Part shown: piece after piece, positions 29-401 of the stretch
Layout: the number at the start of each line of letters is the position of its first letter
Numbering within the stretch: the stretch's first letter is position 1
Source of the DNA: Escherichia coli
GTDB taxonomy: Bacteria > Pseudomonadota > Gammaproteobacteria > Enterobacterales > Enterobacteriaceae
DNA: 401 bases
Strand: one strand, 5' to 3'
Assembly: GCF_003334765.1 (NCBI RefSeq)
Contig: NZ_QOWT01000126.1
Notes under the pieces: generated by a model
The model's database searches: none
Seen by the model: the letters and a program-made list of their open reading frames with translations, nothing else
What the model was told of the DNA's origin: nothing
Program-made: the position numbers and the translations under genes

Positions 29-96
29 CCTTAAAGAAGCGTTCTTTGCAGTGCTCACACAGATTGTCTGATGAAAATGAGCAGTAAAACCTCTAC

Positions 97-291: not shown

Positions 292-323
292 TCTCTGTAG
301 TGGTTAAATAAAAAATACTTCAG

Positions 324-345
324 AGTGTACCTGCAAAGGTTCACT
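324..345 (+). promoter_or_regulatory. boxB-like hairpin of the spacer antitermination module
   Basis: AGTGTACC (324-331) pairs with GGTTCACT (338-345) around loop TGCAAA (332-337): 7 of 8 positions pair, with one T-T mismatch at 328/341. It lies just upstream of a boxA-like motif, the arrangement known for rrn antitermination elements. The functional assignment is by position and recall, not by test. Confidence 0.5.
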
Positions 346-354
346 GCGAAGTTT

Positions 355-366
355 TGCTCTTTAAAA
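355..366 (+). promoter_or_regulatory. boxA-like transcription antitermination motif (NusB/NusE binding site in the RNA)
   Basis: TGCTCTTTAAAA at 355-366. The first 10 nt, TGCTCTTTAA, match the rrn boxA consensus as I recall it (TGCTCTTTAACAA), and the position between the spacer tRNAs and 23S agrees with the known spacer boxA of E. coli rrn operons. Confidence 0.65.
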
Positions 367-401
367 ATCTGGATCAAGCTGAAAATTGAAACACTGAACA
401 A

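Follow-up and report, generated by a model that had tools for sequence, protein, structure and literature searches.

The element between tRNA-Ala and 23S in the 401-nt stretch of Escherichia coli DNA analysed here (the window) is the spacer boxB–boxA antitermination signal ahead of the 23S gene, a signal that is already known and ordinary. The preliminary description of this DNA had called it the known second antitermination module of rrn operons, and this identification is supported by the locus, the exact boxA, the order of boxB followed by boxA and the literature. The element corresponds to the textbook second loading site for Nus factors, which serves efficient 23S synthesis and probably also the joining of the pre-23S ends, and its confirmation adds no new biology. 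What is gained is a corrected anatomy, in which the hairpin (317–352) abuts boxA and a processing helix begins 2 nt after boxA, together with comparative evidence that the supposedly dispensable boxB-like hairpin is under clear structural selection and keeps its position next to boxA throughout Enterobacterales. In other modules and taxa, this place is taken by non-homologous hairpins, which sharpens the question of what boxB does in rrn operons, and the comparison supplies defined stem variants and compensatory variants with which this role can be tested.

A boxB-like hairpin and a boxA have been described in both the leader and the 16S–23S spacer of rrn operons (PMC6614797, PMC6614801 and PMC10250234, citing Berg et al. 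1989 and Pfeiffer & Hartmann 1997), and rRNA loci carry two boxA copies, one upstream of 16S and one upstream of 23S (PMC4807359). A role of the spacer boxA in efficient 23S synthesis is credited to Berg et al. 1989 and Pfeiffer & Hartmann 1997 in the passages of PMC6614797, PMC4807359 and PMC10250234 that cite them. For the spacer boxA, the same two studies are cited in PMC6614797 and PMC4807359 as reporting that NusB–NusE binds it and that it supports Nus-dependent read-through or efficient synthesis of 23S. The NusB–NusE dimer binds boxA and nucleates the rrnTAC with NusA, NusG, SuhB and S4 (PMC6614797, PMC6614801). The complex speeds elongation and resists Rho, and in a delivery or looping model it holds the nut-like RNA until the two strands of the processing helix meet, which boosts co-transcriptional cleavage by RNase III (PMC6614801; bioRxiv 10.64898/2026.03.17.712431). 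ChIP results suggest that the Nus factors do not act chiefly by preventing Rho termination in rRNA and call antitermination into question as their main role (PMC4807359). The statement in the preliminary description that the module re-establishes Nus-modified RNA polymerase is therefore the classical reading, as later work gives at least equal weight to RNA chaperoning and to delivery of the 5′ strand of the processing helix (PMC4807359, PMC6614801, bioRxiv 10.64898/2026.03.17.712431). The boxB of rrn operons lacks a consensus, and antitermination does not depend on it (PMC6614797, PMC10250234); boxC is not required either (PMC6614797). When boxB was deleted from the leader, 30S activity and growth changed little; E. 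coli has no N protein, and the presence of boxB in rrn operons has been termed 'puzzling' (PMC10250234). 'boxB-like' is used here as a positional and structural label only.

The rrn spacer and its boxA

Annotation with ARAGORN and Rfam showed that the window is an E. coli 16S–23S spacer of the tRNA-Ile/tRNA-Ala type, containing the 3′ end of 16S (1–28), tRNA-Ile(GAU) (97–173) and tRNA-Ala(UGC) (216–291). A megablast search of E. coli chromosomes showed that all 401 bases are 100% identical to a copy in strain VR50 that lies between gmhB and dkgB; from the E. coli map, we take this copy to be rrnH. The window was matched in 5,426 of the 5,426 complete E. coli genomes searched by megablast. According to the VR50 record, 23S begins 74 nt past the end of the window, at window-equivalent position 475, and the distance from the start of boxA to the start of 23S is 120 nt. 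The element had been placed between tRNA-Ala and 23S in the preliminary description, and these positions bear that placement out. Its remark that such elements are often left unannotated also holds for the RefSeq record of VR50, in which the interval between tRNA-Ala and 23S carries no annotated feature; Rfam covers this interval only from 359 onward, with the family StyR-44. The linker between the 3′ end of tRNA-Ala and the hairpin (292–316, plus strand) is A/U-rich in its 3′ half and varies in length and sequence among relatives. Elsewhere in the spacer, a perfect 9-bp inverted repeat (CAAATTTGC / GCAAATTTG, 3-nt loop) was observed at 172–192, beginning at the last two bases of tRNA-Ile and sitting in the gap between the two tRNAs; it may be a processing hairpin.

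The spacer boxA, UGCUCUUUAA in the RNA, lies at 355–364 on the plus strand and is the expected binding site of NusB–NusE. The sequence TGCTCTTTAA had been reported at this position before, and it is there as described: it matches the rrn boxA consensus UGCUCUUUA exactly (PMC6614797, PMC2724277), and none of 200 dinucleotide-preserving shuffles of the window contained the decamer. Comparison with characterised rrn boxA sequences, which had been proposed as a check, showed that the spacer decamer differs neither from the boxA in the leader of its own operon nor from the consensus (PMC6614797). The 8.4-kb operon (L001) contains just two copies of the decamer, each on the transcribed strand; the other one is the boxA of the 16S leader (L001 2343–2352), which begins 144 nt ahead of 16S. 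Folding of transcripts ending at 372–390 predicted that positions 356–359 in the 5′ half of the spacer boxA are unpaired (probability 0.75–0.99), and that the 3′ half pairs weakly with UUAAA at 304–308 (probability unpaired 0.13–0.36), the latter being the result of a thermodynamic model for the E. coli sequence; by eye, the UUAAA partner is missing in some of the relatives listed.

The genome scan described below demanded an exact boxA, and the conservation of boxA cannot be read from the resulting set. It was sampled separately, in rrn loci on chromids that were reached via their tRNAs. Among these loci, the boxA of Proteus is exact, that of Ralstonia carries one substitution (TGTTCTTTAA) and that of Burkholderia carries two (CGTTCTTTAA). 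In four alphaproteobacterial rrn loci on chromids or plasmids (L124, L125, L128 and L129), no boxA-like motif (N-G-Y-T-C-Y-T-T) was present within 500 nt after tRNA-Ala. A Priestia match obtained in the same sampling was discarded, as it is a tRNA cluster and not an ITS.

Structure and conservation of the boxB-like hairpin

The preliminary description had placed a stem-loop at 324–345, 9 nt upstream of boxA. This stem-loop is real: folded alone, it consists of AGUG/CACU, a U·U mismatch, ACCU/AGGU and a GCAA loop, with −8.2 kcal/mol and a z score of −3.2. Its boundaries were too narrow, however, as it is only the inner part of a hairpin that spans 317–352 on the plus strand and that was delimited by RNAfold, pair probabilities, covariation and a covariance model. 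The full hairpin has 13 bp, −15.0 kcal/mol and a z score of −3.96, with 1 of 200 shuffles folding as well, and its pair probabilities within 292–401 are 0.8–0.95. In the RNAfold structure it is made up of a 5-bp outer stem (A317–C321 / G348–U352), a 2×2 internal loop (A322 G323 / G346 C347), an inner stem (324–332/337–345) with a U328·U341 mismatch and a GCAA tetraloop (333–336). Positions 345 and 355 are separated by 9 nt, as stated, but because the full hairpin spans 317–352, the distance between hairpin and boxA is 2–3 nt.

The hairpin was not detected by an exact inverted-repeat finder run on 292–401, because its arms are interrupted. A permissive E-value search of Rfam also left it uncovered, the matches being the tRNAs, the 3′ end of 16S, StyR-44 from 359 and weak, non-significant ones. 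The scan of the window for terminators and promoters returned zero sites, and an intrinsic terminator, which consists of a G+C-rich stem followed by a T run, was rejected on this basis. At a transcript length of 292–366, a competing pairing of GCAAAG with UUUUGC (333–338 with 352–357) was the predicted MFE structure.

Relatives of the element were collected by a scan of 100,044 species genomes with the pattern GCTCCACCA-N40–70-TGCTCTTTAA, which returned at least 120 loci. Among the matches listed, about 85 were gammaproteobacterial ITS and the remainder were chance matches in other DNA. From the matches listed, 29 distinct Enterobacterales homologues were aligned. This set was chosen by requiring an exact boxA and a match to a loose pattern that covers the outer stem and the internal loop; because the selection used only these parts, covariation in the inner stem is unbiased. 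The result of RNAalifold on these 29 relatives showed the same 14 pairs, 8 of which carry compensatory double changes. Pair counting over the same 29 relatives, among the matches listed, found 97% of the cells paired in the main helix and 95.4% in the whole structure, compared with 28–52% in a control in which the partners were slid by 1–3 columns, and none of 500 shuffles reached the observed covariation score. A GNRA loop was present in 30 of 39 distinct sequences among the matches listed.

The covariance model built from the 29-sequence alignment scored 81.8 bits at the hairpin of the window and found one strong match per enterobacterial ITS, mostly at 66–86 bits with one outlier at 49.9 bits. 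The same hairpin is present in the Proteus locus sampled independently via its tRNAs, where it shows additional compensatory variants and ends 1 nt before the exact boxA. Taken together, the comparative data point to clear structural selection on the hairpin across Enterobacterales. The core around the internal loop (C321, G323, A324, U345, G346 and G348; alignment columns 15–18 and 44–47) is nearly invariant in the Enterobacterales among the matches listed. Position 347 was only ever C or U among the aligned relatives, a distribution that would allow G323 to pair with C/U347 between two bulges.

In 39 sequences among the matches listed, the hairpin ended 0–4 nt before boxA (median 1). As a statistic, the distance from the last paired base to boxA is uninformative, as 40–70% of shuffles also gave 4 nt or less. 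The distance from tRNA-Ala to the start of the hairpin in the same 39 sequences was 5–27 nt, with an upper bound limited by the design of the scan. Greedy clustering over-merged the hairpin families, and reliance was placed on energy z scores and covariation. The hairpin is positionally tied to boxA and not to the tRNA.

Other boxA modules and the processing helices

All four E. coli modules compared, namely two leaders, the tRNA-Glu spacer and the tRNA-Ile/tRNA-Ala spacer, consist of an unrelated stable hairpin, 1–3 nt and UGCUCUUUAA. The tRNA-Glu spacer carries a different hairpin (AUAUCUCAAAAC…GUUUGAGAUAU; L002 3711–3749) with a UUCG loop, −15 kcal/mol and a z score of −5.4, which ends 1–2 nt before the same boxA, and the two E. 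coli spacer types are identical from the TTT directly before TGCTCTTTAA onward. The Glu-type hairpin was also found after tRNA-Ala, again abutting boxA, in Tatumella, Rosenbergiella and one further enterobacterial genome (L006, L016, L031, L032 and L105). Because it recurs after tRNA-Ala, the block of hairpin plus boxA appears to be a module that has been shuffled between spacer types.

The leader modules of rrnH and of the operon next to clpB, presumably rrnG, contain other hairpins, which end 2–3 nt before boxA. The covariance model gave zero strong matches on the leaders, and homology of the leader and spacer hairpins was rejected, as their sequences are unrelated and the leaders lack a strong match to the model. 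As a minor observation, CACUGC in the 3′ arm of the spacer hairpin recurs as the start of the 'cac-boxA' of the rrnG leader. Unrelated hairpins directly 5′ of boxA were found in Vibrio, Photobacterium, Grimontia, Shewanella, Halomonas, Idiomarina, Ralstonia and Burkholderia, those of the last two lying 1–2 nt upstream of boxA. Judged from these sequences, the design that recurs places any stable hairpin 0–4 nt before boxA.

A separate observation concerns Shewanella (L003, L082 and L091) and Porticoccaceae (L072 and L088), in which a long A/U-rich stem ahead of boxA is closed by GCC/GGC and followed by 6–7 U, 4–9 nt and boxA. This is a shape like that of an intrinsic terminator inside an rRNA spacer.

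RNAcofold of the 23S flanks gave an interrupted helix of 60 intermolecular pairs (−116.7 kcal/mol), the first of which is A366–U7434. The outermost 5′ strand of this 23S leader–trailer (RNase III) helix lies at 366–387 on the plus strand of the window and pairs with L001 7413–7434 in the 23S–5S spacer, and the helix starts 2 nt past the boxA decamer. An analogous arrangement is seen for 16S, whose leader–trailer (RNase III) helix has the leader boxA at its outer base. The window also contains the 3′ strand of this 16S helix, at 34–85, and its cofold with the 16S leader (L001 2341–2398) gave 49 intermolecular pairs and −67 kcal/mol. In this cofold, window positions 54–61 pair with the leader boxC and 79–85 (GAGCAGU) with the 5′ half of the leader boxA.

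The closest known system, the E. coli rrn spacer boxB–boxA (Berg, Squires & Squires 1989; Pfeiffer & Hartmann 1997), comes from the same organism and locus type and has the same boxA and a 5′ hairpin; no substantive difference from it was found. The nut-like site of the rrn leader (boxB–boxA–boxC, e.g. the rrnG nut RNA on which rrnTAC studies have relied) shares the boxA decamer, a hairpin 2–3 nt upstream and the position of boxA at the base of the leader–trailer helix. The two differ in their unrelated hairpins and in what follows boxA, which is AACAAUUUA and a GU-rich boxC (TGTGTGGG) in the leader and AAAAAUCUGG in the spacer. Allowing up to one mismatch, TGTGTGGG was present in the leader (L001 2370) and was not found between the spacer boxA and 23S, but an element that lacks it there can still belong to the spacer boxB–boxA class. 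Leader and spacer share the boxA, a few bases after it and a short CACT further downstream, and little else.

The 5′ part of the Rfam family StyR-44 (RF01830), an RNA fragment of the 23S leader, matches the window at 359–401 on the plus strand (41.3 bits, model positions 1–43). The full-length match, at window-equivalent positions 359–467 (L001 4359–4467), scored 122 bits against a gathering score of 54. StyR-44 was cloned as a 109-nt RNA, was detected by Northern blotting in S. Typhi and E. coli and lies upstream of 23S in all seven operons, and its authors suspected a processing intermediate (PMC2943607). StyR-44 shares 359–364 with boxA, and neither the hairpin nor the first four boxA bases belong to it; its 5′ end, C359, is thus inside boxA, and its 3′ end is 8 nt before mature 23S. 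This extent implies an RNA 5′ end within boxA.

Proposed role, alternative readings and related systems

It is highly probable that the element acts as the spacer nut-like module of the E. coli tRNA-Ile/tRNA-Ala rrn operon in the following way. The transcribed boxA (355–364), presumably single-stranded, would be bound by the NusB–NusE (S10) dimer, and this binding would nucleate or renew the antitermination complex, with NusA, NusG, SuhB and S4, on RNA polymerase just before 23S, which would result in fast, Rho-resistant elongation. Through its hold on boxA, the complex would also tether the neighbouring 5′ strand (from 366) of the 23S processing helix to the polymerase, and the strand would be kept until its partner emerges 2.9 kb later, which would help processing by RNase III. 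A fresh boxA would logically be required after the 16S leader has been cut away. We infer that the position of boxA, 2 nt upstream of the 23S leader strand, is the arrangement that a tether would need. For the binding of the Nus factors, the function of the spacer boxA and the delivery model, this account draws on the published work cited above.

The hairpin at 317–352 would fold fast and is capped by a tetraloop, and its most likely role is that of a structural insulator or boundary that sequesters the sequence ahead of it and so keeps boxA accessible. Protection of the tethered RNA end once tRNA-Ala has been removed is another possible function. The boundary role is favoured because any stable hairpin seems to serve as long as it abuts boxA. 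The hairpin may contribute little, as the rrn boxB is dispensable and its deletion from the leader was nearly silent (PMC6614797, PMC10250234).

A generic insulator role leaves the conservation of the internal-loop core and the preference for a GNRA loop unexplained. A possible, if rather doubtful, reading is that the 'boxB' of Enterobacterales spacers is a distinct, uncatalogued structured RNA with a function of its own, its features being the outer stem, a core of C-A-G-A opposite U-G-C/U-G, a covarying inner stem of 8–9 bp and the GNRA tetraloop. Such an RNA could be a docking site for a component of the rrnTAC or for a processing factor, or it could make a contact through its tetraloop; if this were true, it would give a handle on why rrn operons keep boxB without an N protein. 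It is unlikely that the hairpin is an element of RNA processing or stability outside the Nus signal and adjoins boxA only incidentally, whether as a structured border to an RNase E site, located in the A/U-rich linker, at which tRNA-Ala would be released, as an RNase III-type substrate or as a cap that stabilises an excised leader fragment. The A/U-rich sequence UAAAUAAAAAAUA (305–317), largely unpaired in the MFE fold, does lie directly 5′ of the hairpin, which itself has about 16 helical steps with an internal loop; a stable StyR-44 fragment from the region accumulates in cells (PMC2943607), and the small effect of deleting the leader boxB (PMC10250234) would also suit such a role. However, among the matches listed it is the distance to boxA that is fixed (0–4 nt) and the distance to tRNA-Ala that varies (5–27 nt), and the Glu-type hairpin follows tRNA-Glu in E. 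coli or tRNA-Ala in Tatumella and Rosenbergiella but always abuts boxA. Moreover, a hairpin 2–3 nt ahead of boxA is also present in the leader modules, where no tRNA lies upstream, and StyR-44 starts at 359, which leaves the hairpin outside it.

Two further readings turn on what follows or faces the stem. The hairpin and the U-rich tract UUUUGCUCUUU might together form a NusA-sensitive pause or weak terminator-like checkpoint, at which improperly modified polymerases would be slowed or discarded before 23S. A U-rich run that includes boxA does come immediately after the stem, the hairpins with U6–7 runs ahead of boxA in Shewanella and Porticoccaceae are terminator-like, and NusA stabilises hairpins in the RNA exit channel (PMC6614801). 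A checkpoint is nevertheless quite improbable, given that the terminator scan of the window was empty, that the base of the E. coli stem is A/U-rich and its helix is interrupted by the internal loop, and that rRNA operons require efficient read-through. Less probable again is a structural switch in which AGAGUG in the 5′ arm (322–327) pairs with UGCUCU of boxA (355–360) and the hairpin controls the exposure of boxA. Six complementary positions are evident from the sequence itself, G323 and A324 hardly vary, and a competing fold involving 352–357 is the MFE at a transcript length of 292–366. Against this, the hairpin is the first of the two to form as the RNA is made and by far the more stable (−15 kcal/mol; pair probabilities 0.8–0.95), and the change G325→A, seen in 4 of 29 relatives among the matches listed, is compensated inside the hairpin (alignment pair 19–43, GC→AU) and not against the invariant boxA. 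That an accidental stem-loop lies beside an accidental decamer is scarcely credible. The spacer is A/U-rich and 292–401 as a whole is not unusually stable (z −0.92), but a chance hairpin is refuted by the covariation and by the absence of the decamer from all 200 shuffles, and the presence of the element in 5,426 of 5,426 E. coli genomes and of the same architecture in many genera also speaks against chance.

Beyond the rrn operons, the spacer boxB–boxA can be compared with nutL and nutR of phage lambda, whose boxA, CGCUCUUA, is closely related to the UGCUCUUUA of rrn and is accompanied by a short hairpin ending in a GNRA-type loop, and which use the same host Nus factors (PMC2724277, PMC10250234). 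The order in lambda is boxA–spacer–boxB, whereas in rrn it is reversed, with boxB before boxA. The lambda boxB has a 5-bp stem and an N-binding pentaloop (GAAAA/GAAGA-type), whereas the rrn hairpin has 13 bp and an internal loop and shows no consensus across modules. A lambda-type N-binding boxB was rejected for the window, where the stem is an interrupted one of 13 bp, the loop is a GCAA tetraloop and the host has no N; the likeness to lambda boxB is limited to a GNRA-capped hairpin next to boxA. In the cyanobacterial ITS (scheme of Iteman et al. 2000, PMC8461337), a variable boxB helix and a conserved boxA are likewise recognised domains. The cyanobacterial boxA differs in sequence (GAACCTTGAAAA), and the helix serves there as a taxonomic marker.
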